This document shows positions 4,074-20,457 of a stretch of DNA of 32,000 bases, one piece after another. The notes below the pieces were generated by a model that saw only the letters and a list, made by a program, of their open reading frames with translations, searched no databases and was not told where the DNA came from. Origin of the DNA: Pyrobaculum aerophilum str. IM2 (GTDB taxonomy: Archaea; Thermoproteota; Thermoprotei; Thermoproteales; Thermoproteaceae); NCBI RefSeq assembly GCF_000007225.1, contig NC_003364.1, forward strand, positions 120,001 to 152,000. The letters run 5' to 3'. The translations under genes and the position numbers were made by a program. Every line of letters starts with the position of its first letter. The stretch's first letter is position 1.

Positions 4074-4111
4074 CATACCTCAGTTCAGCTTAATACTGTC
4101 AGCAATTTAGT

Positions 4112-4737: not shown

Positions 4738-4902
4738 TCAAGGGCTAGGGCCATCCATCATCACATCCGCCCCGCAGATCAGTCTCAGCGCCTCCCCGGC
4801 CCTTGTGGCCGCCTCCTCCACAGACACAGCCGTAATGTTCACGCGGCCCATCTTCCGCTTCGGCCTTGTAGTGCTAGTAAACCCGCCAGCGGTAATAGTG
4901 GT
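4738..4902 (-). pseudogene. purK-like 3' end remnant (C-terminal ~35 codons of an ATP-grasp N5-CAIR synthase)
   Basis: My minus-strand translation gives ...GFTSTTRPKRKMGRVNITAVSVEEAATRAGEALRLICGADV...*. This parallels the intact PurK C-terminus ...KKEARPRRKMGHVNITGGSLAEVASKARLALQLIYG. At the DNA level, 4831..4866 aligns with 5811..5846 with many mismatches (shared blocks atgttcac and ggcccatcttcc). The frame is closed upstream by a TAG at 4903..4905, and no start codon or N-terminal domain is present. Confidence 0.55.
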
Positions 4903-4979
4903 CTATATTGTGAGTCGTTGAGATAGTAGAAATGGGCTGAGAGCGCCAGGGGGTAATATATATAAGCCTCAGAGGGGGC

Positions 4980-5468: not shown

Positions 5469-5521
5469 AATGCGCCGCGCGGCTAGGCCGCCGGCTCCGA
5501 GCAAGACCGGGGCCGCTCCGA

Positions 5522-5761
5522 GAGGAGGCGGATGTTGAGGGGTCGGGAGACCTCCACGCGCTCTACGGCGACCTCATGAAGACGTTACACGAGGAGGCCT
5601 TCTACGAGGGCGTGTACCAGCCGGAGGAGGTGAAATATGCAGCGCCGCAGTATATCAGCCAGTTACGACAGCTTGTCTCCCACCCGCCGACGATGCGAGT
5701 TCACTACCAGAGGCGGCGTAGGATCTCAAGACCAGCCTCGGGAAGTCGCGGCCGTAAATAA
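5522..5761 (+). pseudogene. PaREP1-like C-terminal fragment, antisense-overlapping the purK 3' tail
   Basis: The frame reads ...GDLHALYGDLMKTLHEEAFYEGVYQPEEVKYAAPQYISQLRQLVS. This parallels the C-terminus of the neighbouring PaREP1 protein (GDVVYRAWDAAYFLHVNGFHEVRIDIDIVKAKLKAIEPMMELVK) in the pattern GD..LH..F.E..V..I..LV. No N-terminal half is present. Confidence 0.4.
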
Positions 5762-6794
5762 GTTGCAACGCCAGTCTGGCCTTCGAGGCGACCTCCGCGA
5801 GGGATCCGCCGGTGATGTTCACATGGCCCATCTTCCTCCTAGGCCTCGCCTCCTTCTTGTAGTACCAGTAGATCTTCCCGATCCTCTCCAGCTCAGCCAC
5901 GGGGAGCTTCTCAATAGGCACCCCCAGTATGTTGACCATCGCCGTCGGGGCAATCGCCTTGGGCTCCCGCACCGGGAGCCCCAAGACGGCCTTCACGTGG
6001 TTCTCGAACTGGCTCGCGTCAGTCTCAAGAGTCCAGTGAGCTGTGTTGTGAACTCTCGGCGCTATCTCGTTGGCCAATATCCTCCCGTCGCTTGTCTCGA
6101 AGAACTCCACAGCGAGGACCCCCACGTATTTCCACCTGTCAAGTATTCTGTGGACATACTCGTAGGCCTCCTCGGGGGCCTTCACGGGCGCGATGTTCCA
6201 AACCAATATGCCGTGTACGTAGTAGTTCTGGGCAGGCGGGTAGAAGTAGACGTTGCCATTCTCCGCCCTAACGGCCACAATAGAGAACTCCCTCTTGATG
6301 TCCACGTACTCCTCCACCAAGAGCTCCCCCTCGAGCCTTGAAATGGCCCCGGCCTCCCTCGGGTATACGTACTGCCCCTTCCCGTCGTATCCGCCCGTCG
6401 GCACCTTGACCACGGCCCTCCTCATGGACTCCGCAATTTTAAGCGCCTCCTCCCACCCGGCCGCCCGGCGCCACGGCACGGTGGGAACGCCTATCGAGTC
6501 GAAAAAGGCCCTCTCCTCCAGCCGGCTCTTCTTCAGACGCAGGTACGCCAGCGGCGGCCTGAGCTTGCCCAGCCTCTCAGCCCTCTCCGCGAGGGAGATG
6601 TCCACGTTCTCAAACTCGAAGGTGACGGCGTCGGCCCTCTCCACCTCTTCAAGCGGGTCCGCAGGCCTCCGCGCGCACCTATAGGCCGGCGCAGAGGAGT
6701 CGGGGTCGTACACAGAGAAATCCACAGGAATCCTCTGCGACTCCCAGCACATCATCAGCGCAAGTTGCCCCCCGCCGAGGACGAAGAGCCGCAT
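5655..6794 (-). CDS. purK: N5-carboxyaminoimidazole ribonucleotide synthase PurK (ATP-grasp)
   Basis: 379-aa ORF with an N-terminal MRLFVLGGGQLALMM, an ATP-grasp core and the C-terminal RKMGHVNITG motif. A TATA-like AGTTTAAAAGC (6813..6823) lies about 24 nt upstream of the ATG at 6794. The last ~30 residues (RDFPRLVLRSYAASGSELASSAGGRQAVVTG) look non-canonical and overlap the PaREP1 fragment. Confidence 0.93.
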   Translation of the reverse strand: MRLFVLGGGQLALMMCWESQRIPVDFSVYDPDSSAPAYRCARRPADPLEEVERADAVTFEFENVDISLAERAERLGKLRPPLAYLRLKKSRLEERAFFDSIGVPTVPWRRAAGWEEALKIAESMRRAVVKVPTGGYDGKGQYVYPREAGAISRLEGELLVEEYVDIKREFSIVAVRAENGNVYFYPPAQNYYVHGILVWNIAPVKAPEEAYEYVHRILDRWKYVGVLAVEFFETSDGRILANEIAPRVHNTAHWTLETDASQFENHVKAVLGLPVREPKAIAPTAMVNILGVPIEKLPVAELERIGKIYWYYKKEARPRRKMGHVNITGGSLAEVASKARLALQLIYGRDFPRLVLRSYAASGSELASSAGGRQAVVTG

Positions 6795-6861
6795 GGCGAA
6801 GTAGATTACTACAGTTTAAAAGCTTTAGTTAAAAAACAGACGGGGAACGCTGATGTAGCCC

Positions 6862-6898
6862 CGCCTTGTATTTAAACGTTTGGTGAAAAGGACTTTAT
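6862..6898. repeat. Left copy of a 37-nt imperfect direct repeat (putative att site) bracketing the island
   Basis: 6862..6898 (cgccttgtatttaaacgtttggtgaaaaggactttat) aligns base for base with 19456..19492 (cgcctgatgtttaaacgtctagtgaaaaggactttat). 32 of 37 positions match, with uninterrupted 9-nt and 16-nt blocks. Confidence 0.75.
6872..6898 (-). pseudogene. Displaced purE 3' end remnant (last 8 codons plus stop)
   Basis: The minus strand reads ATA AAG TCC TTT TCA CCA AAC GTT TAA, giving IKSFSPNV*. The intact purE end at 19466..19492 reads IKSFSLDV*. The remnant lies 77 nt upstream of the purK ATG and is followed, like the real purE end, by a T6 tract 35-41 nt after the stop (6831..6836 versus 19426..19431). 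Weaker similarity may continue to about 6960. Confidence 0.65.
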
Positions 6899-7221
6899 AT
6901 AAAGAGCACCACGTCCCGTATCTTCTTCACGCTCGCTTGACGCGCACGGCCCACTCCAGCAGGTCTAATGGTGCTGGGCAACGGCGATTAGGTTTTTGAG
7001 GGTGAGGCTCGCCTTGCCACCACTCTCCGCCCTGTCGATTATCCTATCCCCCGTCGCCCTCATGGACCGCGACGGCTATGTGCGGCGTTTTCACCTTCAC
7101 GTCGGCGTTTATCTCGCCCTTCTAGTCTGTCGGGGGTTGTATGCCCTCTTGCAACGGCTTTTCGCCGGGTTGCCTATCGTCTTGACGCCGTATTTTGAGC
7201 CAACTAGCTTAAGCAAGAGAT

Positions 7222-7572
7222 CTACGCCGTAGAGCTCCCGGCAGGCGCGGGCCCATGCCCGGATGCGAGGAGCGAGAGATGTAGCCAAAGACTACACGCG
7301 GTGGGTAGAGGCCCTGGTTTGTACACCACGCCTAATGAAAACACGGCACCAATATGCTTCAAATAGATAGCCGCATCGCCCCCAACCTCGGCGAGCCAGA
7401 CCTCCCCCGTCGCCGACAGCTGTACGCTCCTCATAGGCAGCTTCTTCCATTTCGCAGGGAGGTGATAGTATTATAGCAACGGGGGATCGCGCCCAGCGAA
7501 ATACGGCTCGAAATACTTCCACAGCTCCTCTGCAGCCTTTAGGAACACGCCGAGGGTGCCTGGAGGACAGCC
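7222..7572 (-). pseudogene. Degenerate ORF with an in-frame TAA; unidentified gene remnant (weak resemblance to an IS200/IS605 TnpB N-terminal region)
   Basis: One minus frame reads ...TLGVFLKAAEELWKYFEPYFAGRDPPLL*YYHLPAKWKKLPMRSVQLSATGEVWLAEVGGDAAIYLKHIGAVFSLGVVYKPGP..., with a TAA at 7471..7473. The segments LPAKWKK and IYLKHIG loosely recall the FKxK and lPkiG segments of TnpB. This is by eye only. Confidence 0.25.
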
Positions 7573-8006
7573 TCAACGCGACATAGGGCACCGCATACGT
7601 AGCGTAAAACCCCGGCGTCTTTCTGCCACATTAATGGGAGAATGGCATTTTACGTGTTCAGGCGCGTGATTTTTGATGTGGGCCCTCACGGCTGTTCTGC
7701 TCTCCGTCTGCTGTTGGTGTGGTGTGCGTAGGCCTATGTGCACAGGTTGCCGGCTATCCGGCCTTGTGGGGAAACGTCGGCGTAGAGCCGTCCAGCATAG
7801 GGCATGTGGCGTCGGTTGTGTGGTAGTGGAGGATGGCGGGAGTGTGGGCCAAAAGATCGGGGTGCGGAGCGGTGGATGATGTGATTGGTGCGCAAGCCGG
7901 CCGGCTTCAACACTGCGTTAATGTGCGTATGGGCGTGAAACGGTTCTTATAGGGCCGTAAACCGTTTAGCATTATTTTATAGAAAAATTATTAATAATTT
8001 TAACAG

Positions 8007-8900
8007 TTGCACCTCTTCGTGACAAACTACTGGCTCACCATGTTGCCTGAGGAAAATTTTAAGCGCGTCGTAGAGCTGGGCCTCTACGGGCTTCCTGCAA
8101 GCGTCGCAGAGATGGCGAAGAGGATAAAGCCAGGCGATAGGCTAGTGGTGTACATAATGAAAGAGGGCTGTAGAGAGCTGTGCCAGTCCTTCGCCGCGGT
8201 GCTAGAGGTGGTGGGCCAGTGGAGGAGGTCTAATAAGCCCATCTGGCCAGATGAGGCGAGGGAGGGACGCGTTAAGTACCCTTTGGTGGTGGACGTGAAG
8301 GCTGTGGCGATGGGCAAGGCTGAGTTTTCCAAAATAAGGGAGAGGCTGGAGGAGTTGATAGGCGCCGAGGGCCTAGACCCCAAGAAGCTGAGGCTCTACG
8401 CGCTTTACTACGCCAAGCGCCCCTTGCCGCCCGGCGTCGGCGAGTTCATCGAGGAGTTGCGGAGGGCGGAGCGGCGCGCGGCCGGGGAGGAGCTCTCCCA
8501 TAAAGAGCTCGTGGAGGCGGTTGTGGAGGTTGGGCGTTGGCTTGGCTTTAGAGTGGAGCGGGAGTACCGCATAGACAACTTCAGGGTAGACGCGGCGTTT
8601 TTCAAGCCGCCGAGGGCTACGCCTTATGCCGTCGTCGAGGTGCATGTAGGGGGCGACGTGTATAAGGACTTGGCCGCGCTGAAGCACGCCTATGACAAAT
8701 ACGGCTGCAAGCTGGTGTACGTACTGGCGAGGGACGAGGAGCAAGTCGCCAAGTTGCTAGACGAGGCGCTTCAAGGCGCCTTCCACGAGATTAGAGAACA
8801 CGTCGCCGTGGTGAAGCCCATGGAGTTGCTCAAACTACGCGAAGCGCTGAGGCAAGAGGGGGTTATGAGGCTTTTAAAGTGGCTAGAGGTGGTAAAATAG
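8007..8900 (+). CDS. EVE (PUA-like) domain protein fused to a C-terminal PD-(D/E)xK-like nuclease domain; candidate modification-dependent (type IV-like) restriction enzyme
   Basis: The N-terminal ~130 aa (NYWLTMLPEENFKRVVELGLYGLP...IKPGDRLVVYIMKEG...FAAVLEVVGQW...IWPDE...KYPLVVDVKAV) fits the archaeal EVE/UPF0310 pattern. The C-terminal part (WLGFRVEREYRIDNFRVDAAFF...PYAVVEVHVGGDVYKDLAALKHAY) has an E...D...E-x-H/K restriction-endonuclease-like arrangement. The track start is TTG 8007. GTG 8019 lies about 25 nt downstream of the very AT-rich box 7985..8002 and is the more likely leaderless start. Confidence 0.65.
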   Translation: MHLFVTNYWLTMLPEENFKRVVELGLYGLPASVAEMAKRIKPGDRLVVYIMKEGCRELCQSFAAVLEVVGQWRRSNKPIWPDEAREGRVKYPLVVDVKAVAMGKAEFSKIRERLEELIGAEGLDPKKLRLYALYYAKRPLPPGVGEFIEELRRAERRAAGEELSHKELVEAVVEVGRWLGFRVEREYRIDNFRVDAAFFKPPRATPYAVVEVHVGGDVYKDLAALKHAYDKYGCKLVYVLARDEEQVAKLLDEALQGAFHEIREHVAVVKPMELLKLREALRQEGVMRLLKWLEVVK

Positions 8901-8935
8901 CCGCTAGGCATATAAATCAGCGGGTACATGTCTTC

Positions 8936-9112
8936 ATGAAATGCCCCTACTGCGGCTCGGAAAACGTGGAGGCTGTCAAGAGCTGGGAGATGCCGAAGAT
9001 GGGCTTCAATGTAACTCACTACCGTTGCAAAAGCTGCAGCGGCTTGTTCAACCACTACGTCGGGAGGGGCAAGGAGTTCGTGTTGAGGGTGGGGCTGAGA
9101 CGTAGGGGCTGA
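8936..9112 (+). CDS. Zinc-ribbon miniprotein (58 aa, CxxC...CxxC)
   Basis: MKCPYCGSENVEAVKSWEMPKMGFNVTHYRCKSCSGLFNHYVG... has two CxxC pairs. A TATA-like ATATAAAT at about 8909..8916 lies 20-27 nt upstream of ATG 8936. The track's longer 8879 start overlaps the upstream gene and precedes the TATA. A T6 tract follows at 9325..9330. Confidence 0.6.
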   Translation: MKCPYCGSENVEAVKSWEMPKMGFNVTHYRCKSCSGLFNHYVGRGKEFVLRVGLRRRG

Positions 9113-9406
9113 GTCCGCGGTGTTAAGGAGCTGAATAGTAATATGAAAAATTTCTATTTAAACTCCAGCTGGCAGTTTATACGTGAGGAGCGGCCTTCCT
9201 CGTATTGTCAATCGGGATAATTCGGCTACAGCCATTCCGGCACGCTTGCATATAACCGGAAGCAGTATATCAGTAAGGCGAGGCTCGGCCGTGGAGGGCG
9301 CAACAGGTGGTCTTAAGGGATTTTTTCTTAACATGAAGAGGCTATTCACCGTTCCCCTAGACACCTCGCGGGAGCTCTACATAAGGGATTACAGTCGGCT
9401 GAGGCC

Positions 9407-12400
9407 ATGACCCAGGTCGGCATACCCCAGATAGATCTTGACGACGTTTTGCTGTGTATAAGAAGAGCCGTCCAAATGGCCCGTAGCGAGGAGGACGTGA
9501 GGGTGAGGGTCTCCTCGTGTATAGAAGAGAAGATTTTGAAGCCGCTTGGCCTTGAACACGCCGTTGGTAGGTACGAGTATACGCTTGTTTCTGGGGCTAG
9601 GGTAGACGCGCTTTACGGACACGTGATCATCGAATACAAGGCGCCTGGCAAACTGTCCTCAGCCAGCGACGTCGCCAAGGCCAAGGAGCAAGTGGTGAGA
9701 TATATCATGGGTGAGGCTGGGAGCAAGTCTGAGTGGCCGCGGTATCTCGGCGTGATAATAAGCGACAGAATCGCCTTTGTGAAATACGATCCGCAAAGCG
9801 GCACTTGGATACTAAGAGGGCCTTACGACATCCGGCGCGAGGTGGTGATAAAGCTGATAGAGGCTCTGAGAGGCCTCAGGAGGAAAAACCTCGACGTAAA
9901 CAACCTAGTCAAAGACTTCGGCCCCAACTCGCCAATAGCAATGAAAACTATCAAGCTTCTGTACCGCAAACTTACAAGTAGCAACAACCCCAGGGTCAAG
10001 GTGCTCTTCGACGACTGGATGAGACTTTTCAAACAAGCCACTGGCTACAACCCAGAGGAGCTGGAGGAGTTGCCCAAGCTGGCCGAGGAATATGGGCTGA
10101 CGGGCGGGGTGAACTACGATGCGTTGCTATTCGCAATACACACCTACTACGCTCTGATAATGAAGCTGATCGCCGCCGAGATAGCTTACCTGTACGGCGG
10201 CGGGAAGTTCTACAGATCCTACGTGGCGGAGCTTGACGACGCGTACTCCAGGGAGGGGGTTGAGGGCATTAGGCAGGTTTTGAGAGATCTTGAGAGCGGC
10301 GGCGTGTTTAGAAATTTACTAAATATTGAGAATTTCCTCGAGGGGGACTACTTCTCGTGGTACCTCGACGAGCTAGATAAAGAACTTGCCGATGCAGTTG
10401 CCGAAATTGCCAGGAGGCTATCCGACTACGAGGTGGCGGCGCCTCAGCTAGAGCCCGAGTTCGCCCGCGACTTACTGAAGAGACTATACCAAAACCTCGT
10501 GCCTGGGGAGATACGGCACAAGCTGGGCGAGTACTACACGCCTGATTGGCTGGCCGAGCTGGTGCTAGACGAGGTGGGGCTGAGCCTAAAAAATTTGCTT
10601 AAAATGGGCGAGGAGGATCCCCTTAAGCCGTTGAAAATAAGGGTACTAGACCCGGCGTGCGGCTCCGGCACCTTCTTAATGCTTTACATAAGTAGGCTTA
10701 GGAGATACGCCGAGGAGCACTATATGACAGATCAGCTCCTGAGCTATGTGTTGGAGAACGTCGTCGGCTACGACCTCAACCCCTTGGCCGTGCTGACTGC
10801 TAGGACAAACTACCTCTTGGCGGTAGCGGATCTGCTCAGCTATGCGAAGGGAAGAGTTGAGATACCGATATACCTAGCCGACTCTATTATGATTGAAAGA
10901 AACTCGCACTTAGCCGGCGACGTGTACTTACTTAGATCTGTCGTCGGCGAGTTCCAAATACCAAGAAGCGTGGTGGAGAAAGGATTGTTGCCCGAAGTAT
11001 TATCAGAGGTGGCTCAAGCGCTGAGAAATAGGTACACCCCCAAGGACTTCGCGGAGAGGGTGAGGTATAGATTCAAGGAGCTGGATCAAGGCGACGTCAA
11101 TATACTAAAAGGACTCTACGAGAAGTTGTATAAGCTCGAAGAGGAGGGGAAAGACGCTGTGTGGATCTCAGTCTTGAGAAACGCCTTCGCGCCTGTCCTC
11201 AAAGGCAAATTCGACTACGTAGTTGGAAATCCGCCATGGGTAAACTGGGAGAACCTACCAGAAAGCTATAGGAATGTAAGTAGGGATCTATGGGCTAAGT
11301 ATGGACTCGCCGAGATCAAAGGCAAGACGGGATTAGGCAAGGTTAAAAGAGATTTGGCAATGCTCTTCGTAGCAAGAAGCTTCGATCTGTACCTCAGGGA
11401 GGGGGGCAAGCTGGGATTCCTAGTACCATTTACAGTATTTAAAATGCAGGCTGGTGCGGGCTTTAGAGATTTCCTAGCTAGGAAGACCCGTATACATGTT
11501 ATCCATGACCTGGTAACTCTATTTCCATTTGAAGGGGCAACAAATAGGACGGCGGCAATAGTTATCGAAAAGGTTTGTAGCCTATCCGATACCGGAGGCA
11601 AATGCACACAGATGATAGAGACTTTTAAGAATAATATCAATGGAGTGAGACATGTAATATGGGTTAATACGTCAAGAAGAGCTATACCAACAGACATGCC
11701 ATTAGAGGAGGTGCTAAAGAGGACAAGGAGATACGAGGCTGTAATGGCCCCGATGATGCCAAACGACCCCTCCAGCCCGTGGATGCAAGCAACGCCATCG
11801 GTAATCAAGCTGATAAGAAAATTGACAAGCGGAAATCAGTACTACGAGGCTCACGAGGGGGTTAACACGGCGTTGAACCAAGTATACTTTGTAAAGATAC
11901 TTGAAAAGCTCCCTAACGGCATGTTAAAGATAACCAACCCTCCCGAGCCGGGTCAAAAGAAGAAGGTTAAACAGGTAGATGCTGTAGTAGAGCCAGATCT
12001 GATTTACCCACTAATAAGAGGGAGAGATGTGAAGAAATGGTATGTGGGATTTGAAGATAGGTATATTATTCTTCCTATAGATTCGCGAGGCGATCCTATT
12101 AGTCACGATAAAATGAAAACTAAATATCCAAATACCTACGACTACTTCTTCAGATTTTTTAAAGAACTTATAAGTAGGAGTGGTGAACCATATAAATCTA
12201 AGCTAGAACCTTATAGAAAGCTACCTTTTGAAAAAGCTGAAAAAATTGCGCCCCCCTTCTATTGGATATTTAACGTAGTTCCTAGTCTAGCGCCTTACAA
12301 AGTTATCTGGAAATCAATTGCTGGTGCTATTACTGGGAAGGCTGTTGATTTTGCCTGCGCCGTTGTGGGGCCTTTTACGGATAAATTCCTCGGTTCTAAA

Positions 12401-13126
12401 ATTGCTATACCTGAGCATAGCACAATTTTCATAGGGTTTGATAACGCTGATGAGGCTTATTATGTTGCTGGCGTCCTCAACTCAACGCCTGTAAAGACCG
12501 TAATCGCGTCGTATACCTATGAACTTAGACAAGAAACACACATAGTAGACAACGTTAAAATCCCCAAGTACGATCCAGAGAACGAGTTGCATAAGAAGAT
12601 AGCTGAACTCTCCAAGAGGGCTCACGACCTTGCCAAAGAGATACACGAGGAGAACAGGAGAAATCTTGAGACTGAGCTTAGGAAGGTTGAGGAGGAGTTG
12701 GATATCGTTGTTGCTAAGCTGTTTGGTATGGGCGAGGCTGAGCTTAGGGAGTTTAAGAAGTTGTTAGCTATTCTTTCTGGTAGTGAGTATTCTGAAGAGG
12801 AAGAGGAAGTTGCTGTACCGGAGAAACCTACTGTTCACGTTCTGAATACTTCTCTGCAACCTGGCGTTGAATCATATATAGAAGTTGACGTGGTAAACCC
12901 CTCAGGTGAGGAGCTGGTGTTTACCTACGAGCTGCCTTGGGGCAAGGGCTCTTTCAGTATAATTACCGGGAGGTACCGCATACCTACGCCGCCTTTGAAG
13001 CCCGGCAGATACAGTGGCGTTCTTAAGTGGAGGTGGCGGGGGGAGGAGCACTCTGTTGACATCGTCGTGGAGGTGGCGCAGCCGGAGGGGCCGAGGAGGA
13101 GGAGCACGCTTTTCGGCTCCAGATGA
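9407..13126 (+). CDS. Type IIG/IIL-like (MmeI-style) fused restriction-modification protein: N-terminal PD-(D/E)xK nuclease motif, gamma-class N6-adenine DNA methyltransferase, TaqI_C-like target-recognition region, and an extra C-terminal beta-rich domain
   Basis: The nuclease-like motif is D67-x8-E76-x-K78 (ARVDALYGHVIIEYKAPGKL...AKEQVVRYI; D at 9605..9607, ExK at 9632..9640). The pre-motif is GEYYTPDWLAELV. SAM motif I is VLDPACGSGTFL (10643..10678) and motif IV is NPPW (11228..11239). The TRD-like part contains EAHEGVNTALNQVYFV and LIYPLIRGRDVKKWYV. The canonical C-terminal helix is VVAKLFGMGEAELREFKKLL. It is followed by an acidic linker (EEEEE) and a ~110-aa beta-rich tail. Confidence 0.85.
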   Translation: MTQVGIPQIDLDDVLLCIRRAVQMARSEEDVRVRVSSCIEEKILKPLGLEHAVGRYEYTLVSGARVDALYGHVIIEYKAPGKLSSASDVAKAKEQVVRYIMGEAGSKSEWPRYLGVIISDRIAFVKYDPQSGTWILRGPYDIRREVVIKLIEALRGLRRKNLDVNNLVKDFGPNSPIAMKTIKLLYRKLTSSNNPRVKVLFDDWMRLFKQATGYNPEELEELPKLAEEYGLTGGVNYDALLFAIHTYYALIMKLIAAEIAYLYGGGKFYRSYVAELDDAYSREGVEGIRQVLRDLESGGVFRNLLNIENFLEGDYFSWYLDELDKELADAVAEIARRLSDYEVAAPQLEPEFARDLLKRLYQNLVPGEIRHKLGEYYTPDWLAELVLDEVGLSLKNLLKMGEEDPLKPLKIRVLDPACGSGTFLMLYISRLRRYAEEHYMTDQLLSYVLENVVGYDLNPLAVLTARTNYLLAVADLLSYAKGRVEIPIYLADSIMIERNSHLAGDVYLLRSVVGEFQIPRSVVEKGLLPEVLSEVAQALRNRYTPKDFAERVRYRFKELDQGDVNILKGLYEKLYKLEEEGKDAVWISVLRNAFAPVLKGKFDYVVGNPPWVNWENLPESYRNVSRDLWAKYGLAEIKGKTGLGKVKRDLAMLFVARSFDLYLREGGKLGFLVPFTVFKMQAGAGFRDFLARKTRIHVIHDLVTLFPFEGATNRTAAIVIEKVCSLSDTGGKCTQMIETFKNNINGVRHVIWVNTSRRAIPTDMPLEEVLKRTRRYEAVMAPMMPNDPSSPWMQATPSVIKLIRKLTSGNQYYEAHEGVNTALNQVYFVKILEKLPNGMLKITNPPEPGQKKKVKQVDAVVEPDLIYPLIRGRDVKKWYVGFEDRYIILPIDSRGDPISHDKMKTKYPNTYDYFFRFFKELISRSGEPYKSKLEPYRKLPFEKAEKIAPPFYWIFNVVPSLAPYKVIWKSIAGAITGKAVDFACAVVGPFTDKFLGSKIAIPEHSTIFIGFDNADEAYYVAGVLNSTPVKTVIASYTYELRQETHIVDNVKIPKYDPENELHKKIAELSKRAHDLAKEIHEENRRNLETELRKVEEELDIVVAKLFGMGEAELREFKKLLAILSGSEYSEEEEEVAVPEKPTVHVLNTSLQPGVESYIEVDVVNPSGEELVFTYELPWGKGSFSIITGRYRIPTPPLKPGRYSGVLKWRWRGEEHSVDIVVEVAQPEGPRRRSTLFGSR

Positions 13127-14535
13127 GCGAGCTGAATAACAAGGTGAAGAGGTGCTTCGGCGACTACGCCGTGGATAAGAGGCTCGCCTACGAGCTGGAG
13201 TTGGCTAAGCTGCCTAGATACGTGGCGGAGTTTCTAATCTCGGAGTTCATGACGCTGGGCGGGGACTGGGAGGGCAAGCTGAGGAGCTTTATTAGGGAGC
13301 GCTACTACGAGCCTGAGGAGAAAGAGGTCGTTAAGCACAAGCTTGTGACTGAGGGCGTGGTTGAGCTTATCGACGAGCTTAGGGTCTACGTAGATGTGGA
13401 GACGGGGGCTCACATAGGGGTCATACACGCCCTTGACATATGGGCTGAGGTGCCTGTGGACATCGTCGAGAGGAACAGGGCGACGCTGACAACCGGCATG
13501 TGGGGCTTGATAACTCTACAGCGGTGGGAGGGGGTCAGAGAGATTTTGGGGAGGCCCGTGTCCGTCGTCGTGACAGACTTCAAGCCCTTCCAAGCGCCGG
13601 ATACAGACCCCAAGATCCTGGAGGAGGGGAGGGGGTGTTTCACGCTGGAGGAGTGGGTGGAGGTTTTGATAAACACCATAGGCCTTGACCCCGCCGTCTA
13701 CAGCCCCCGGCAGAGGCTCCTCCTCCTCGCCCGCCTAGTCTCCCTAGTAGAGGGGAATGTAAACATGGCTGAGTTTGGGCCTAGGCAGACCGGCAAGACG
13801 TACCTCTATAGAAACGTGAGCAACTACGTGAGGATAATCTCAGGGGGCGTCATATCCCCAGCCGCCTTGTTCTACAATCTGAGGACTAAAGTGCCGGGCG
13901 AGCTGGCCCTCAAGGACGCGGTGGTTTTCGACGAGGTGAGCAAGGTGAGGTTTCCCAACCCCGACGAGATGATGGGCAAGCTTAAGGACTACATGGAGAG
14001 CGGCCACTATGAGAGGGGGGACAAAAAGGTGGTGTCCGACGCCTCTCTGGTCTTTATGGGCAACGTGTCGGTTGAGCTGACTTCCGAGGGCTATGTACCG
14101 GTGGAGGACTTGACCTACGTCTTGCCGGAGCCCATGAGGGACTCCGCGTTTATTGACAGGATACACGGCCTTCTTCCAGGCTGGGAGCTTCCGAAAATAT
14201 CTCAGAGCAAATACCACCTGTCTAAGGGCTACGGCGTGGCATCCGACTACTTCGCCGAGGCGTTGCACGGCATGAGGAAGGAGAGCTTGTCGGGGCTTGT
14301 GGGAAGGCACGTGGAGCTTTCTGAAAACTTCAAGATTAGGGATGAGAAGAGCTTTAAGAGAATTACCAGTGGCTTGTTGAAGCTCCTATTCCCCGACAAG
14401 ACTTTTGACAAGAAGGAGCTCAAAACCATCGCGGAGTTCGCGCTGGAGTTGAGGCAGAGGGTCAGAGATTGGCTACACAAGATCGCACCGGGGGAGTTCC
14501 CACGCGAAGTCCTCAGCGTAAGAGTTCTGCCATAG
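13123..14535 (+). CDS. BrxL-like AAA+ ATPase (COG4930 / PF13337 / TIGR02688-like) without a Lon protease domain
   Basis: 470-aa ORF whose ATG overlaps the upstream stop (ATGA at 13123..13126). The N-terminus (FGDYAVDKRLAYELELAKLPRYVAEFLISEF...YYEPEEKEVVKHKL...VELIDELRV) and DSAFIDRIHGLLPGWELPK match my memory of the BrxL ATPase family. Walker A is GPRQTGKT (13777..13800). Walker B is AVVFDEV (D/E at 13930..13935). Sensor-1-like is LVFMGN. The protein ends about 90 aa after the ATPase core, so there is no protease domain. Confidence 0.7.
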   Translation: MSELNNKVKRCFGDYAVDKRLAYELELAKLPRYVAEFLISEFMTLGGDWEGKLRSFIRERYYEPEEKEVVKHKLVTEGVVELIDELRVYVDVETGAHIGVIHALDIWAEVPVDIVERNRATLTTGMWGLITLQRWEGVREILGRPVSVVVTDFKPFQAPDTDPKILEEGRGCFTLEEWVEVLINTIGLDPAVYSPRQRLLLLARLVSLVEGNVNMAEFGPRQTGKTYLYRNVSNYVRIISGGVISPAALFYNLRTKVPGELALKDAVVFDEVSKVRFPNPDEMMGKLKDYMESGHYERGDKKVVSDASLVFMGNVSVELTSEGYVPVEDLTYVLPEPMRDSAFIDRIHGLLPGWELPKISQSKYHLSKGYGVASDYFAEALHGMRKESLSGLVGRHVELSENFKIRDEKSFKRITSGLLKLLFPDKTFDKKELKTIAEFALELRQRVRDWLHKIAPGEFPREVLSVRVLP

Positions 14536-14787
14536 CCATTCTCCACAGTCACGGATATCCCCCGTTCCACATTTGAGTGGCTATTGCCGAGACATGTACC
14601 TGTGTTGCAGATCGGCGTAATACTTAACTTCACGCCGAAAGTGACTTCTTAAAGATTCTCGAAGAGTAGGTAAGACCGCCCGTTGAGAACTTCCGAGGAC
14701 ATCGTAAAAGGCTGGCGTAGTTATATTTCCTAAGTGATATAATCTATGGTTCGTTTTCTTCATTAATACCTAGGCGTATTTCCCTTA

Positions 14788-15093
14788 GTGAAAGTAAGAT
14801 TGGTGGACAGGATAGGTGAAGTTGGTCTGTACGAGGTCTCGGCCGATTTGGCGTGGAGTGATTATCTGTATGTTGTGTTCAAGGCTAGGCGCGAAGTGGG
14901 AACTGCGATCACCAAGATCATATACTCAGATGGGAAGTGGTTACTGCCGTTGCCGACAGTTGCCGAGGACGTGGAGCTAATCTACGTGGGACCTGTGGAA
15001 GGTCTGAGGTGGGAGAGTTCTGAAGGCCAACACGCCGGTTCTGAAGGCGTAGCTCTTGGCAATGGCGACGCCGTTGGGGGCTATTCTCAGTAG
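14788..15093 (+). CDS. Hypothetical small protein (uncertain)
   Basis: GTG-start ORF. The first ~63 codons lie in the convergent intergenic gap and read protein-like (KVRLVDRIGEVGLYEVSADLAWSDYLYVVFKARREVGTAITKIIYSDGKWLLPLP). A TATA-like ATTAATA lies about 20-29 nt upstream. The last ~39 codons overlap the herA 3' end on the opposite strand, which weakens the call. Confidence 0.3.
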   Translation: MKVRLVDRIGEVGLYEVSADLAWSDYLYVVFKARREVGTAITKIIYSDGKWLLPLPTVAEDVELIYVGPVEGLRWESSEGQHAGSEGVALGNGDAVGGYSQ

Positions 15094-16785
15094 CTGGCTG
15101 TACTCTCTTAGGCCGAAGCTCTCCAATACGGTTTCATCGCTTCTGAATACTACTTTTGTGTTAGACAGCTGGGTCACTAGGGGGTTTAGGTCTTCCGGCA
15201 TGTGGGTTGCAAACGCCACTCCTACGCGGCGCACTCTTCCCAAGCGCGTCAGTTTGTTTATCATATCCTCTACCGCCTCTTTGCTTACGTTTTCGCCTCT
15301 CTCTGTCTGGGGGAAGTACTCGTGCGCCTCGTCTACCAGCACCAGCATTGGCTTGGGCGTGCCTGTTCTCAGCTCCCTGTCCTTTATCTCCATAAGCTTT
15401 CTCAACAGCCTATACACCACGATTGAGGCCGCAGTCGGTTTTTCCATAAAGAGCTCTAAGTATACAACTGCCGGGTTTTCAAATACCGTGTCGTAGTTAG
15501 GCTCTCCTATCTTGATGCAAGGCTTATTTGTTTTGCTTAGACACCACTCCACGTCGAGTATGTCGGTGCCCTTCAACATAAAAAAGCCGCGTATGATGCT
15601 CTCTATTTGCGAGGAATGTAATTTTAACTTCTCTTTTATTTGTCCTTCAAGCTTATTTATCTTCTCTACAGCAACACGTATCGTTAAGTTGTTTGGATCG
15701 CCTTCGCCAATCTTTTCTACTAGAAGCGAAGCTATGTCTTTGTATAGCAGTGCTATTCTTTGCGTGCCAAAGAATGGGAAGAGGGATGGGACGTCGAATA
15801 TGACGTCTCTTAGGTTTAAGGCCCATGTCACAACATCAATCTCCGCATTGGACAGATACACGGTGAAGCCCTTTACATATCCCACGCCATTTTTCTCCTC
15901 TGCCTCAGGCACCACATCGCCGGAGATGCCGGCTCGTCTTAAGAAGAGTTGCCCTAGGCCGTAGGACACGGCCTCTGCGAAGAGCTTCGGGTCATTAATT
16001 ACAGAGAGATCGCCTTCCTGCTCGATCTTTTCCAGATATTCGTTTGCGTATCTGATGAGCTCTTTGTTTTCTCTAAAGAGGAAGCTCTGGGTTACTGGCC
16101 ATATTATAGTAAGCTTGTCGAGTGGCTTGTAAATTGAGTCTGGCGCCGGGTAAACTAGGTGTATGAAGTCCCCCTGGATGTCGAAGGCGAGCGGTATCAC
16201 GCCGAGGTCCCAATACGCAGAAATGGCCAAGTTTTTGAGAAACGTGGTCTTGCCGGCGCCGGTGGTGCCCACCACTAGCATGTGGGTGAAGAGGGCTTCT
16301 TTGGGCAGCCTCACATATATGTCTAGCTCTTTGCTTACGTAAAGCTTGCCCAACAACGCCCCGTGCTGAGGTATGCCGAGCATAATTGCTATGACTTCGG
16401 GAGAGGGCGCATAGACCGCGCTTGTGGGGTCTACAGGCGACGCCGGCTGGGTGGGGTCGCAGTTCTCCAAGCTCGGACACTCGGCAATTGGCTCAAGCTC
16501 CAGGAGCGCCGGGGTGGTGAGGCCTTGGGGATCGTTGATGTATGTATCCATCGGCTCTATACCTAACAAGGCAACAAGGTGTCTTCTCTGAATTGACGTA
16601 ATCCGCGCAAGAATAAGCGATTTGTGAACCGCTGTTTCTATGAGGAGGAGCTCGCCGACCTTTAGCAACCTAGATTTATATACATCAAATGGGATTTCCA
16701 CCAATATTTTATGCTGTGGGCCGACGGCTATCACCTCGCTTGCCGAGACGATGCCTATTTTTTCACCGAGTTTTTCACCGAGCAT
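14977..16785 (-). CDS. herA: HerA-type FtsK/HerA-superfamily ATPase (HAS-barrel plus P-loop)
   Basis: 602-aa ORF. The N-terminal HAS-barrel-like region is GIVSASEVIAVGPQHKILVEIPF...VGELLLIE...LARITSIQRR. Walker A is GTTGAGKTT (16243..16269). Walker B is PMLVLVDEAHEYFP, with a downstream RLGRVRRVGVAFATH. Its start overlaps the nurA stop by 11 nt. Confidence 0.85.
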   Translation of the reverse strand: MLGEKLGEKIGIVSASEVIAVGPQHKILVEIPFDVYKSRLLKVGELLLIETAVHKSLILARITSIQRRHLVALLGIEPMDTYINDPQGLTTPALLELEPIAECPSLENCDPTQPASPVDPTSAVYAPSPEVIAIMLGIPQHGALLGKLYVSKELDIYVRLPKEALFTHMLVVGTTGAGKTTFLKNLAISAYWDLGVIPLAFDIQGDFIHLVYPAPDSIYKPLDKLTIIWPVTQSFLFRENKELIRYANEYLEKIEQEGDLSVINDPKLFAEAVSYGLGQLFLRRAGISGDVVPEAEEKNGVGYVKGFTVYLSNAEIDVVTWALNLRDVIFDVPSLFPFFGTQRIALLYKDIASLLVEKIGEGDPNNLTIRVAVEKINKLEGQIKEKLKLHSSQIESIIRGFFMLKGTDILDVEWCLSKTNKPCIKIGEPNYDTVFENPAVVYLELFMEKPTAASIVVYRLLRKLMEIKDRELRTGTPKPMLVLVDEAHEYFPQTERGENVSKEAVEDMINKLTRLGRVRRVGVAFATHMPEDLNPLVTQLSNTKVVFRSDETVLESFGLREYSQLLRIAPNGVAIAKSYAFRTGVLAFRTLPPQTFHRSHVD

Positions 16786-17797
16786 AACACTCCATTAAGC
16801 TGTCATACGTGAGGTTGAGCCCCTTCCCCATTAGTTTTACGCAGATTAGGCGTGCTAGTCTCTTGCTGAGGTCTTTTGCTAGCTTATCTACTAACGCTAT
16901 GTGGTAGGGCAGGCCTGGGACAACTCTGTTTCTTAACAACGTGGGTAACACCTCCTCGGCGTACTCCTTGCGAAATGCCTCAACCCTGAATATCGAGCTT
17001 GCGCTGTATATATACCACAGGTAGCGCTCTGGTAGAGGGTGTAATTTACTCTGCCTAAACGTCTGCTTAAATGGCCCGAAGACTACTACGTCTCTGTAAG
17101 ACCTCATGTGCATCCTCCCGAGCTCTGCCACTACCGCCATGTCGTTACACGCAGCGTCTATCCGAATGCCCATCTCCTCGACCCACTCCTTAGCCCTGCA
17201 CAACTTCTTAGACGTCTCTAGGCGTTTCACCACCGCCACTACGCGCTTATCCCACAGCGCCTCCACCCTCCACCAGTCTATTTCTGGAAATCCCCGTATG
17301 CCGTAGTACAAGGGGCCGTCTATTAGCGCAGTTCCCTTCGCCTCTTTAATTAAGGCAATTTCAACGGCCTCTCTTACCACTTTCCCCACTACGTCTTCAG
17401 GCACGTCGCTTTTGAAGAACTTCTCACCGTTTGCGAATCTGTATTTCACAATCGCCACGTCCTCTAGCCTCCTCAGAGCCTCCTCGTCGTCTGACTGCAA
17501 TGCCACGTGCTTTACGTCCCTAAAGCCGGGAATAGTCAAGATGCCCAGCTTAGTGTAGGCGACTCCGACGGCGAGAAATAGGCGAAATGTAGGCGTGGTG
17601 ATAGTCCGGAGAGAGCCATCTACGGCGTAGTCCACTGGGGGCCCATTGGGTGGAAGGTCGTCGTAGTGGAACACGCCAGCCTCGGAGCTGTGGATATCGC
17701 TGAGGTCCTCCTCCTGGATCTGGATCCTAGGACCCAACGGCTTTTTGATTGAGGATAAGTTGTCTATAAGCGCCTCTAGTCTCTTCAAAAACTCCAT
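16775..17797 (-). CDS. nurA: NurA-domain nuclease
   Basis: 340-aa ORF with NurA-like motifs in order: DYAVDGSLR (D60), REAVEIALIKEAKGTALIDGPLYY, VVAVVKRLETSKKL, IFRVEAF and GLPYHIALVDKLAK. It lies immediately upstream of and overlapping herA. A very AT-rich promoter region (17801..17830) lies about 25 nt upstream of the ATG. Confidence 0.75.
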   Translation of the reverse strand: MEFLKRLEALIDNLSSIKKPLGPRIQIQEEDLSDIHSSEAGVFHYDDLPPNGPPVDYAVDGSLRTITTPTFRLFLAVGVAYTKLGILTIPGFRDVKHVALQSDDEEALRRLEDVAIVKYRFANGEKFFKSDVPEDVVGKVVREAVEIALIKEAKGTALIDGPLYYGIRGFPEIDWWRVEALWDKRVVAVVKRLETSKKLCRAKEWVEEMGIRIDAACNDMAVVAELGRMHMRSYRDVVVFGPFKQTFRQSKLHPLPERYLWYIYSASSIFRVEAFRKEYAEEVLPTLLRNRVVPGLPYHIALVDKLAKDLSKRLARLICVKLMGKGLNLTYDSLMECYAR

Positions 17798-18505
17798 ATC
17801 AAAATTTTAATAAAAAGGTATAATTATTAAAGCTATTCCCAGAGTTGTCACAGTGAGGTAACGGCGACGTGGGCGGACAGAGTTTGAGGGCGACCGCCTA
17901 AATCGCCTTACTTAAGTCCAAAGGCCCTGGCGACAAGGCAAGTTTTGACAATAGGGCTCCACTATAGCGTTAACAATATGGAGCAGACAAAGCCAGTTGC
18001 AAGCGATATCGCATAATCTGCGCACTACCTGTGACAACCGCTTATGGACAAACCTTCCAAATATGCTTAGGGGATTTACGAGAGCGTTAGCGATAAAGCT
18101 TGAGGAAACCTCCTGATGCATCTAAACCTCATGGAGCTCGGCGGCTTTTACACATGGAATGCGCTGAGGGAGGTTGCAGAACGAGCTTACAAGCTGTCTC
18201 AACAACTTTGTAAAAAACCGGCACTATGCACAACCCCCTCTCGCAACTCGGGTTTATGACGTCTTGTACCACTGCGCATAGAGCCCCCGCAAGCTCTACC
18301 TAGAGCTGGCTAAGCCGTACATCCCATGACAATATTAACAAGGCTTGTATAAATGATATGAGCCGTTCAGACTGCTGTCGTCCGCCGGCCCACGTGGATG
18401 TACGTCGCCTGCAAGGATCGCGGAACGCAATGTCGCAGAAGCAATGAGACAAGGCGCCCACGCAAGTCTCATTTACGCCTAGCAGAGCCCGTCTTTGTTA
18501 AACGG

Positions 18506-19144
18506 CTATGGCAGGCCTAACACGGCCTTTAGGGCTTTTCTCCTCTCCAGAATCTCTTTGTCGCTTGGCAGTAGCGGATTTCTCGTCTCTGTGCAGTAGT
18601 CGACTATCCACTTGGCGACGTAGCATGTCTCCACTAAGCCCAGCCTCTGGGGCTTAAACGCCTTCAGCAACTCCCTCTCCACGTCGGCTATTTTCACAGA
18701 GAAGTAGGCCGTCGGTAGCTTGAGCTTTTCCACCACCTCCCCAACCACTTCGCTGTAGGCCTCCACGTCCGCGTCGTCTATCCCACTTTCAAAGACGTGT
18801 ACGAGGACAGCCACGTCGAAGCCGTAGAGGTAGTACCTAAGCGGCTGGCCAAACTCGCGGTACGCCCTCCTCCAACGTTTTCTCCCAGCTGTTTTGAAGT
18901 ACTTCAGCTCCATAGCGGCTAGGACATGATTGTGGGAGTCTTTCACAACTAACACGAGATCCGGCTTGGCCACGAAAGCCGGGATGCGAGAGCCAAGGCG
19001 CTTGGCGAGCGCCTCCATACGCTCTTTGGATATTGCGCCTTCCAAGAACACCTCGCCAAGCCGTGGGTCGCAAGCCTTTAGGGTTTTGGCAAGCCACCTA
19101 GCAACTGCGCGCTCATTTGCAAACATACCACATACTGTTCGCAT
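18506..19144 (-). CDS. Hypothetical protein with a PD-(D/E)xK nuclease signature
   Basis: 212-aa ORF with P61-D62...E79-L80-K81 (AKPDLVLVVKDSHNHVLAAMELKYFK). A TATA-like CTTTTTAAAA abuts the track ATG at 19144. The internal ATG at 19126 (MFANERAV...) is about 25 nt from it and is the more likely start. Confidence 0.55.
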   Translation of the reverse strand: MRTVCGMFANERAVARWLAKTLKACDPRLGEVFLEGAISKERMEALAKRLGSRIPAFVAKPDLVLVVKDSHNHVLAAMELKYFKTAGRKRWRRAYREFGQPLRYYLYGFDVAVLVHVFESGIDDADVEAYSEVVGEVVEKLKLPTAYFSVKIADVERELLKAFKPQRLGLVETCYVAKWIVDYCTETRNPLLPSDKEILERRKALKAVLGLP

Positions 19145-19455
19145 TTTAAAAAGCTTGACGGCCTAGGGAGGCACGCCGGGATTTTTAACCCTACGCCGAC
19201 GTATATAGCTTGACCGGGAGGAGCTAAACCACCTCGATGGCGTCTAGAACCCTTTCCCCTTATACCCCTCTGCGTTTGGCCCATCGCCCCCACAGCGCTC
19301 CTACTGACGCCGTGAGTGCGGAGTCCCCAGCTTGTGCTCACAAGCGCCGCTTTTTAGCTTAACCCTAATCCTCAAAATCTTGGCGAGGACGTAGAGCCGC
19401 GTGTGGGTGCTACAACGCCCTATTTAAAAAAGGAACAGGTTCGTGGAGAACTACT

Positions 19456-19492
19456 CGCCTGATGTTTAAACGTCTAGTGAAAAGGACTTTAT
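19456..19492. repeat. Right copy of the 37-nt imperfect direct repeat (putative att site), overlapping the purE stop codon
   Basis: See the left copy at 6862..6898; 32 of 37 positions are identical. This copy covers the last 8 codons and the TAA of the intact purE. Confidence 0.75.
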
Positions 19493-19954
19493 GAAGGACT
19501 TGGACAGTACCTCTTCTCTCATCTTTTCCATGTGTTCTTTAACCTTCTGCCTCACCTCTGGGTATTTTATGCCCAGTATCCTGGCGGCGAGATAGGCGGC
19601 GTTGGCGGCGTTGCCTATGGCCACTGTGGCGACGGGAGTGCCCCGGGGCATTTGTACAATTGACAACAGGGAGTCCAGCCCGCCTAAGTGTTTTGTGGGG
19701 ATGGGGACCCCTATGACCGGCAGCGGCGTTAGGGAGGCGGTCATGCCGGGGAGGTGGGCCGCCCCGCCGGCGCCGGCTATTATCACGTCGAATTTCCCCT
19801 CGGCCTCCTTGGCGAATTGGTACATGAAATCCGGCGTCCTGTGGGCGCTGACGACCCGCGCCTCGTAGGGAATGCCCAGCTGCTCCAAGACCTCAAGCGC
19901 CTCTTTCATGACCTCAAGGTCGTTTATCGACCCCATTATAACCGCAACCTTCAT
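19466..19954 (-). CDS. purE: N5-carboxyaminoimidazole ribonucleotide mutase PurE
   Basis: [19 protein letters not shown]...VVSAHRTPD...[17 protein letters not shown]...PVIGVP are PurE hallmarks. A TATA-like TTTATAAA (about 19973..19980) lies about 23 nt upstream of ATG 19954. The track's 20005 start would add 17 non-conserved residues and lies upstream of the TATA. Confidence 0.93.
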
Positions 19955-20025
19955 GTATAATTTTATGCCACGGTTTATAAAGGTGCGGCGCGTTGAAAAT
20001 ATCACTTGCTACGGCGCGTGGCGCC

Positions 20026-20457
20026 TCAGCGGCGGCTGTAGATCTCCATGAGCTTTTTGTGGGCCTTTGCCAAGACCTCTTTTGTGCTCTTGTACGTGGC
20101 TCTGGCCATTGCCTGTTCAAACGGCAGCCACGCATAGCCGACGTGTTCCCAGCTGAGCTTCACGTCTCTTGACTTGGCCTGGGCCAGGAAGTAAATCACC
20201 TTTTTCAACACCCTCCTCCCGCCGCGGGTGTATACATACTCCACCTCCACCTTAAAGCCGGGGAGCAACTCGGCGTCCAGGCCCGTCTCTTCTTTTATCT
20301 CCCTCAGCGCCGCTTGCTCCGGCGTCTCTCCCAGCTCCACGTTCCCCTTGGGGAAATCCCAGTGGCCGGCGGGATAGTGCAAAAGGAGGTATCCCACCCT
20401 CTCCCCGGGGTAGAACACCACAGCCCCGGCGGAAATTTCGTCGTATTTCTTCGCCAC
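20026..20457 (-). CDS. Nudix hydrolase
   Basis: 143-aa ORF with a complete Nudix box: GHWDFPKGNVELGETPEQAALREIKEETGL (GX5EX7REUXEEXGU). Confidence 0.88.
   Translation of the reverse strand: MAKKYDEISAGAVVFYPGERVGYLLLHYPAGHWDFPKGNVELGETPEQAALREIKEETGLDAELLPGFKVEVEYVYTRGGRRVLKKVIYFLAQAKSRDVKLSWEHVGYAWLPFEQAMARATYKSTKEVLAKAHKKLMEIYSRR

Follow-up and report, generated by a model that had tools for sequence, protein, structure and literature searches.

The purE-purK junction of Pyrobaculum aerophilum str. IM2 is best explained as the host of an old, immobile and composite defence island of 12.6 kb. The island lies within a 32,000-nucleotide (nt) stretch of the chromosome (contig NC_003364.1, positions 120,001 to 152,000), which we call the window and whose numbering is used for all coordinates unless another locus is named. 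An imperfect direct repeat of the junction itself flanks it on both sides, and we favour, at a probability of roughly 0.4, a founding insertion by homology-driven pop-in of DNA that bore its own copy of that junction. An earlier reading of the DNA letters, here called the sequence-only reading, had described the same block as an integrated element carrying a replacement end for purE, and parts of that description are retained below.

An island inserted between purE and purK

Gene order in ten Thermoproteaceae loci, collected through a PurE genome scan, shows that the ancestral state is purE followed directly by purK and that the island is a lineage-specific insertion. In six of these relatives (L001, L002, L003, L007, L009 and L010) only a spacer of about 70-90 nt separates the two genes, and these empty sites bear out the earlier proposal that the DNA was inserted into a formerly contiguous purE-purK pair. 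P. oguniense has a purL-purF-orf130 / purK-purE layout, with synteny on both sides and no island. Its empty site aligns to both junctions of the window, the 30-nt overlap between the two alignments being the duplicated core, and positions 6700-6898 are collinear with it at 76.5% identity. The island is present in all 9-12 contigs of the same species and in every contig encoding exactly this PurK or BrxL. One lineage carries the insert and the orthologous site of its relatives is empty, as is expected of a genomic island.

Other cargo can also be found between purE and purK, namely a phosphonate ABC transporter in L004 (10513-13000 of that locus) and a four-gene Roadblock/LC7 cluster in L005 (10553-12027) and L006 (10520-11997), while L008 has purF/purL after purE and lacks an adjacent purK. 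The inserts of L004-L006 have neither a flanking duplication nor defence genes, so that there is little evidence for a true hot spot; a recurrent, repeat-bearing hot spot was dropped from consideration on account of the missing duplications.

Composition is a poor guide to the limits of the island. The sequence-only reading had called it AT-richer, with 21 G+C of 60 at 12061-12120 against 45 of 60 at 2521-2580 by way of illustration, and both counts are correct. The description holds against the left flank (60.5% GC, compared with 52.1% in the island) and fails against the right flank (53.7%). Windowed GC and tetranucleotide profiles do not mark the island as a block, and the only outlier in both is the C-terminal half of an encoded Type IIG restriction-modification (R-M) enzyme (46% GC, minimum 42%). 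Because the island is not separable from the right flank, composition lends no support to a foreign origin, which is supported instead by the comparative evidence.

The whole junction is duplicated around the island

A repeat search of the window found 32 identities over 37 positions between 6862-6898 and 19456-19492, exactly as had been counted from the letters, and the minus-strand translations IKSFSPNV* and IKSFSLDV* and the distance of 77 nt from the left pseudo-stop to the purK ATG were likewise reproduced. The core has a Smith-Waterman score of 49, compared with a background best of 26 and mean of 19 (standard deviation 1.9) in 300 within-window comparisons. No further copy of the 37-mer occurs in the window at up to three mismatches, and neither it nor the 16-mer shared by the two copies has a match in 165 unrelated loci or in IMG/VR; in P. 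aerophilum-type contigs the 16-mer occurs at these two sites alone. A chance match or a generic repeat is ruled out by a score so far above background and by the lack of other copies.

The 37-nt core is real, but the repeat to which it belongs is larger than had been described, extending over about 150 bp and including a 5' stub of purK (Table 1). A gapped alignment of 6776-6898 with 19384-19492 scores 29 where the background maximum is 14. In the order of the empty site, the duplicated content comprises the purE 3' end, the intergenic region and the first seven or so codons of purK. Since the repeat also holds the purK start, the target must therefore have been the whole junction and not the purE 3' end alone. 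The repeat also extends into purE, where 17 of 25 positions match in register between 6905-6929 and 19506-19530 beyond a 7-nt indel, an extension which taken alone is not significant. Similarity on the other side of the core had been noted by eye as 23 of 44 matches. The similarity itself stands, each copy having a T6 tract at a distance of 24-25 nt from the core, but the ungapped count is 19 of 44 in the register used here.

With the junction duplicated on both sides of the island, purE retains a complete 3' end and purK retains its promoter and start. The indels cluster in the non-functional halves of the two copies. Identity outside the sole perfect block of 16 nt is 65-78% per segment and about 74% overall, and at 74% identity a perfect run of this length has a chance probability of about 0.2-0.25. 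Being expected about one time in four, the 16-nt block is therefore a candidate, and not a demonstrated, crossover site, and we dropped it as a proven att core because its length is not significant. Also dropped was the suggestion of stronger conservation in the purK stub than in the intergenic copy, a pattern that would have spoken for selection before capture; in a gapped comparison the difference vanishes (Fisher p = 1). Compared with the start of P. oguniense purK, the right purK stub agrees at 16 of the 17 nt aligned (17 of its 19 nt when counted by eye), and the right intergenic copy has no convincing donor lineage among the ten Thermoproteaceae loci.

Within the island, at its right end and adjoining the purK stub, 19325-19360 holds a perfect hairpin of 7 bp (GCTTGTG...CACAAGC) with a T5 run after it, which may be a terminator or a recombination-related structure.

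Mobility machinery is not recognisable

Recombinase and transposase families are absent from the island's open reading frames (ORFs) in Pfam, NCBIfam, PADLOC and PHROGs searches, and six-frame translations of 6899-8006 and 17798-19465 hold no integrase remnants detectable with Pfam or PHROGs. The earlier statement that no integrase can be recognised thus holds for ORFs and six-frame translations alike. The two stretches that had been said to contain only broken frames, 6899-8006 and 17798-18505, are indeed empty in six-frame Pfam and PHROGs searches and have weak or absent codon periodicity. The former has no match in phage or plasmid collections, and a tblastx comparison of all non-coding island intervals with every fetched locus revealed no more gene remnants. 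One public annotation calls a hydrophobic ORF of 78 amino acids (aa) at 6996-7232 (+) within this dead stretch of 1.1 kb; codon periodicity in the region is 0.19-0.20, compared with 0.35-0.47 in real genes.

Searches for other routes of mobility gave a similar outcome. There is no tRNA gene in the 32 kb, and the island has no Rfam match, tandem repeats or CRISPR arrays. Terminal inverted repeats are missing, the best inverted match of the island ends scoring 20 against a background mean of 19, and neither a transposase nor a Cas1 domain was found with Pfam or NCBIfam, so that nothing identifies the island as a transposon or a casposon. A split int(N)/int(C) arrangement of the SSV type is not seen, the repeats sitting in purE/purK sequence and not in an int ORF, and no intact tyrosine recombinase (R...YxxR...Y) of the pNOB8 type lies inside the element. 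Nor do the repeats, at 74% identity outside the 16-nt block, resemble the near-identical repeats of integration at a tRNA gene.

These results bear directly on the possibility of a classic integrative element, in which a recombinase would have joined the resident site to a junction-like attP, supplied a replacement 3' end to purE and later been lost as its int gene disappeared or decayed. Such an element would account for direct repeats that rebuild the 3' end of the target gene, for a perfect 16-nt block with divergence on either side, and for a purE whose last 61 nt differ in nearest relative, with the switch at the repeat edge. It would also place an int gene where about 1.1 kb of dead, faintly periodic DNA now adjoins the left repeat. 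We nevertheless hold it to be doubtful. ORFs and six-frame translations give no integrase signal in Pfam, PHROGs or NCBIfam, there is no tRNA target, the repeat takes in the purK start, which is needless for 3'-end replacement, the 16-nt run is statistically ordinary, and the cargo is a patchwork of modules and not a single element. With no integrase or fragment of one, no tRNA target and no significant perfect core, we do not retain the description of the repeats as integrase-type attL and attR sites. The related claim of a replacement 3' end survives in part, in that the end of purE does change its nearest relative at the repeat edge, although what was duplicated is the whole junction.

Recombination between lineages across the pur cluster

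Several of the pur genes in the window change their nearest relative within the gene. The identity of purF to P. oguniense rises from about 0.68 to about 0.85 at 3300-3500, where other species pairs remain at 0.59-0.70. In purK, nt 0-345 are nearest to P. oguniense (0.84, against 0.67 for L001, an uncultured Thermoproteaceae metagenome-assembled genome) and nt 360-1080 are nearest to L001 (0.90, against 0.74 for P. oguniense), with a breakpoint at about 6434 (maximum chi-square 82, compared with a permutation maximum of 23). In purE, L001 is the nearest relative up to nt 476 (0.86-0.94, reaching 0.94 over nt 60-270), and over the last 61 nt the nearest relative turns to P. oguniense (0.84; L001 0.67). 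This switch lies at 19530, exactly where the right repeat copy has its outer limit (Fisher p = 3e-4 for a split chosen a priori). Taken together, the switches in purF, purK and purE indicate that several tracts of inter-lineage recombination run across the cluster. L001 could not be a plain sister species, as its PurD is at most 76% identical to that of any other genome, and the L001-like patches of 90-94% identity are therefore exchanged DNA. A further switch of nearest relative is seen in purE at about 19694.

The 3' end of purK has been duplicated as well. A decayed and displaced stub of it lies beyond the functional gene, and the PaREP1 gene sits between the stub and the functional 3' end. 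The stub shares 83% identity with P. oguniense and runs collinear with the purK 3' end, the intergenic region and the orf130 of that species, whereas the functional 3' end shares 90% with L001; a PaREP1 gene is lacking at the corresponding position of P. oguniense. The two copies demonstrably have different ancestries, to judge from these alignments, and such a duplication is the expected result of one homologous crossover inside purK and one illegitimate join. The purE and purF ancestry data therefore place the island and both repeat copies within a P. oguniense-like block of about 3400-19530, which was later interrupted by the L001-like/PaREP1 insert (4882-6434). Given the mosaic flanks and this second gene-end duplication, host homologous or illegitimate recombination is at least as likely as a site-specific element to have produced the architecture of the locus.

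Recombination of this kind could also have acted in a different order. If the island had landed in purK after codon 7, an imported P. oguniense-like fragment of about 2.6 kb, running from the 3' half of purF through purK to 70 nt inside purE, could have restored purK by one homologous and one illegitimate join, its non-homologous tail becoming the left repeat copy. The P. oguniense-like tract does extend between about 3400 and the left repeat copy, ending at the island, the right repeat stops at purK codon 7, the PaREP1/purK-stub event alongside has exactly such an architecture, and the purE without adjacent purK in L008 suggests that loss of purK is tolerable. We regard this sequence of disruption and rescue as very unlikely all the same, since it predicts copies from different lineages, yet the right copy is itself P. 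oguniense-like, and since it needs a purK-null intermediate. Import of the island together with a halo of donor flanks was also considered and is a misfit, both repeat copies being P. oguniense-like.

The resemblance of both copies to the same P. oguniense-like lineage is more readily accommodated if the junction was duplicated in situ, with the island captured at a long-staggered break or by template switching, about 150 bp being duplicated into initially identical copies whose unselected parts then decayed. The right purK stub, besides its 16 of 17 matches to P. oguniense, agrees with the left purK start at 17 of 19 nt, and the purE end in the right copy is at 0.84 to P. oguniense. Substitution divergence is fairly uniform over the segments (65-78%) when gaps are allowed, and indels cluster in the copies that are no longer functional, as decay of this kind would produce. 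However, a target duplication of 150 bp has no known archaeal mechanism, the purE ancestry switch at the repeat edge is left unexplained, and the neighbouring purK 3' copies are clearly heterologous, so that imported copies do arise at this locus. On balance, we consider duplication in situ unlikely.

A model for the founding insertion

Homology-driven pop-in would proceed without an integrase. Incoming DNA, probably circular, would carry its own copy, of about 150 bp, of a Pyrobaculum purE-purK junction, and would undergo a single Campbell-type recombination with the resident junction through the host recombination machinery. This one crossover would duplicate the junction around the insert and leave both genes undamaged. 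The unselected halves (the purE remnant on the left, and on the right the intergenic copy and the purK stub) would then decay, further modules would accrete, and later inter-lineage recombination would overwrite parts of purE, purK and purF. We favour pop-in because it explains why the whole junction is duplicated, why both genes are intact and why there is no integrase, and because host-mediated homologous and illegitimate recombination has demonstrably struck this locus several times.

Several considerations weigh against this model. The donor molecule was not found, the core having no match in IMG/VR and the non-coding DNA none in phage or plasmid collections. An integrase acting on a junction-like attP, or insertion at a long-staggered break, yields the same structure, and one genome's sequence cannot fully separate the three routes to the observed architecture. 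Both copies are P. oguniense-like in their conserved parts, which makes duplication in situ equally compatible with the data. About 1.8 kb of the island is undecodable and its left part faintly periodic, so a fully decayed integrase is possible. A single genome also cannot place island insertion and flank recombination in order.

Pop-in may nevertheless be one instance of something broader. We put forward, tentatively, that both gene-end stubs are scars of integrase-free island traffic through host recombination, with short flanking pieces of core genes serving as handles.

The cargo is a patchwork of defence modules

Comparison with loci elsewhere shows that the cargo is, in its predicted content, a patchwork of at least four independent modules, each of which is found separately in other places. 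These are an EVE-domain protein; a Zn-ribbon protein with a Type IIG R-M enzyme and a short BrxL; a NurA-HerA pair with a small ORF; and a lone, probable PD-(D/E)xK nuclease (Table 1). The sequence-only reading had assigned the cargo entirely to nucleases, methylases and ATPases, which is essentially right, and to one element, which the separate occurrence of at least four modules contradicts. The enrichment in defence genes that characterises a defence island is provided by the IIG enzyme, BrxL, the EVE protein, the type III-associated HerA and NurA, and the PD-(D/E)xK protein.

Table 1. Features of the purE-purK region of P. aerophilum IM2, in window coordinates
Feature	Position	Strand	Evidence and remarks
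purL	715-2808	+	Pfam
purF	2811-4073	+	Pfam
Displaced purK 3' stub, decayed	4772-4881	-	Translation ...RPKRKMGRVNITAVSVEEAATRAGEALRLICGADV...; duplicates 5752-5846 of functional purK
PaREP1	4980-5468	+	Pfam
purK	5655-6794	-	Pfam; intact but chimeric
Left repeat copy (purK-proximal)	6776-6929	-	Alignments; purE remnant, working intergenic region and real purK start
Left copy: functional purK promoter/intergenic region	6797-6861	-	Followed by first codons of functional purK
Left copy: decayed purE 3' remnant	6862-6929	-	7-nt deletion; pseudo-stop 6872-6874
Sole perfect block of the repeat, 16 nt	6883-6898, partner 19477-19492		Candidate crossover site
No detectable gene, about 1.1 kb	6930-8006		Weak residual codon periodicity at 6900-7600
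EVE-domain protein	8007-8900	+	Pfam EVE, E = 2.4e-12, residues 7-148
Zn-ribbon protein, 58 aa, four cysteines	8936-9112	+	Conserved directly upstream of IIG gene in many related loci
Predicted Type IIG R-M enzyme, 1239 aa	9407-13126	+	PADLOC REase_MTase_IIG, 1329 bits, full length; Pfam Eco57I and N6_Mtase
Short BrxL	13123-14535	+	NCBIfam TIGR02688, 628 bits (cutoff 329); Pfam BrxL_N and BrxL_ATPase
Small ORF, 101 aa	14788-15093	+	Convergent with HerA gene, overlapping its 3' end (partly antisense)
Divergent HerA/FtsK-type ATPase	14977-16785	-	Pfam HerA_C and DUF87; PADLOC HerA 'Type III coevolved', 198 bits
NurA nuclease	16775-17797	-	Pfam NurA, E = 1e-40; PADLOC NurA 'Type III coevolved'
PAE0249, stand-alone, probable nuclease	18506-19144	-	Invariant PD...ExK motif; ORF identical to PAE0249
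Right repeat copy (purE-proximal)	19384-19530	-	Alignments
Right copy: purK 5' stub, about 7 codons	19384-19404	-	ATG changed to ACG
Right copy: decayed intergenic copy	19405-19455	-	T-rich TATA-like box kept
Right copy: functional purE end	19466-19530	-	Last 21 or so codons and stop
purE	19466-20005	-	Pfam; intact but mosaic
NUDIX	20026-20457	-	Pfam

The product of 9407-13126 is a single chain with a PD-ExK nuclease at its N terminus, an N6-adenine methyltransferase and a specificity half of low GC content. This set of nuclease, methyltransferase and target-recognition region marks it as a predicted Type IIG enzyme, and the nuclease triad (D67/E76/K78) is invariant in 50 homologues. Against PglX models the methyltransferase reaches 40-50 bits where cutoffs are 400-500, and it is thus not PglX. 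The specificity half (10900-13126; 42-46% GC) is the strongest tetranucleotide outlier of the window, which suggests that its target-recognition region may have been swapped. The brxL start overlaps the stop of the IIG gene by 4 nt, and its product consists of the N-terminal domain and an MCM-like AAA+ ATPase, with no Lon-like C-terminal domain; residues 11-459 match the BrxL of PDB entry 8emc with E = 7e-72.

This pairing is widespread. Among 80 metagenome loci (L092-L171) whose BrxL is 73-82% identical, the IIG and BrxL genes are neighbours wherever DNA upstream of brxL is included (about 65 of the 80 loci), and the Zn-ribbon gene precedes the IIG gene in about 30 of these. None of the 80 loci contains purE, purK, HerA or NurA. 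EVE-like genes adjoin the IIG-BrxL module in about five other loci, and the uncharacterised C-terminal half of the EVE protein may be nuclease-like. In the full texts searched we found no description of a module made of a IIG enzyme and a Lon-less BrxL, in a search that did not extend to the combination of BrxL with a Zn-ribbon protein.

NurA is translationally coupled to HerA, and the pair recurs as a module of its own in L177-L179. The 101-aa ORF has a counterpart beside the pair in L177 (4954-5241 of that locus; 58% at the aa level), so this ORF is probably a real third gene of the module. The HerA protein falls far below the NCBIfam cutoffs, scoring 39.7 against 970 bits for repair HerA and likewise failing to reach that for antiphage HerA. 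Neither mre11 nor rad50 occurs in the window, and the pair is not recognisable as a repair HerA-NurA operon. Both proteins find their best match in the PADLOC models of HerA and NurA families that have co-evolved with type III CRISPR systems, families that have been described (PMC6546367); no CRISPR array or cas gene lies near the pair here. In L179, where NurA is 85% identical, a 251-aa gene without a Pfam match (487-1242 of that locus) precedes the NurA-HerA pair, and the counterpart of its position in the window is about 530 nt of non-coding DNA (17930-18461).

PAE0249 is a probable PD-(D/E)xK nuclease. Its AlphaFold model has a predicted local distance difference test score (pLDDT) of 85, and the top Foldseek matches are restriction and Mus81-type nuclease domains, all with E > 1e-3. 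A homologue of 83% identity stands alone in a different context in another Pyrobaculum, and DNA similarity with that locus is limited to 18462-19218.

Judging by their families, the IIG enzyme would methylate host DNA and cleave unmodified foreign DNA, helped by BrxL as an ATPase that forms a ring on DNA, the EVE protein would sense modified bases, and NurA-HerA would resect or degrade DNA ends.

Beyond NUDIX, the right flank of the island consists of housekeeping genes. Amid these, 30417-31154 (-) encodes a fused HEPN and nucleotidyltransferase protein that is toxin-antitoxin-like.

Implications

Taken alone, this would be just another defence island at a variable site of the chromosome. It also offers a clean example, from an archaeon, of an island that has a duplicated junction of protein-coding genes on both sides, with neither an integrase nor a tRNA target, and within 15 kb of DNA it is accompanied by repeated inter-species recombination, seen in the purF, purK and purE breakpoints, and by a second, heterologous gene-end duplication. 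The evidence from the flanks gives a concrete and testable model of island movement where integrases are not found. If the stubs are scars of island traffic, then Pyrobaculum species would exchange and implant accessory DNA, whole defence islands included, by host recombination, and each event would leave behind a decaying copy of a gene end, out of its place, together with an ancestry switch within a gene. If this were general, one could search for gene-end stubs as a mark of homology-driven movement of islands in hyperthermophilic archaea without recognisable integrases. Separately, the strictly conserved module that pairs a IIG enzyme with a Lon-less BrxL is abundant among hot-spring archaea and could inform the role of BrxL outside full bacteriophage exclusion (BREX) systems.

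Comparison with known systems

Lambdoid phage 21 and the element e14 integrate inside a protein-coding gene, icd of Escherichia coli, and bring with them a diverged replacement 3' end. The P. aerophilum island is similar in that an imperfect duplication of the target gene end keeps the gene working and a decaying copy remains at the far end of the insert. Unlike phage 21 and e14, which have an integrase and a defined identical core, the island has no integrase and a core that is not significant; its duplication spans the whole junction, including the start of the next gene, and its host is a hyperthermophilic archaeon.

Archaeal integrative elements of the SSV and pNOB8 types have been reviewed (PMC8371274). 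With these the island shares about 10 kb of foreign DNA in a crenarchaeal chromosome, flanking direct repeats and apparent immobilisation. It differs from them in having neither an intact nor a split tyrosine recombinase and no tRNA target, in repeats that are 74% identical and not near-perfect, and in a cargo of defence modules in place of plasmid or virus genes.

Campbell-type pop-in and homology-facilitated illegitimate recombination have been described for natural transformation in bacteria, and to our knowledge neither has been documented in nature for Pyrobaculum. In pop-in, as in our model of the founding insertion, a single crossover in a short stretch of homology leaves a copy of that stretch on either side of the insert. 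In homology-facilitated illegitimate recombination, homology on one side and an illegitimate join on the other leave gene-end stubs comparable with the purK 3' stub. The present case differs from the described cases of pop-in in that the donor is not observed and the direction and order of events are inferred.

In its cargo, the locus resembles known defence islands and hot spots, with several unrelated defence modules set between two housekeeping genes. The closest parallel to the IIG-BrxL pair is with BREX type 1, which includes the PglX methyltransferase and BrxL (PMC10164562, PMC12707154). In both, a gene of the BrxL family directly follows that of a large, PglX-related N6-adenine methyltransferase. 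The island differs in having no brxA, brxB, brxC or pglZ, and so does not present the six genes of that system, and in a methyltransferase that carries an intact and conserved PD-ExK nuclease and hence belongs with Type IIG enzymes. The Lon-like C-terminal domain that mediates assembly of a dodecameric DNA tunnel in BrxL (PMC10164562, PMC12707154) is absent from the island protein. The IIG enzyme and its short BrxL could be a minimal relative of BREX.

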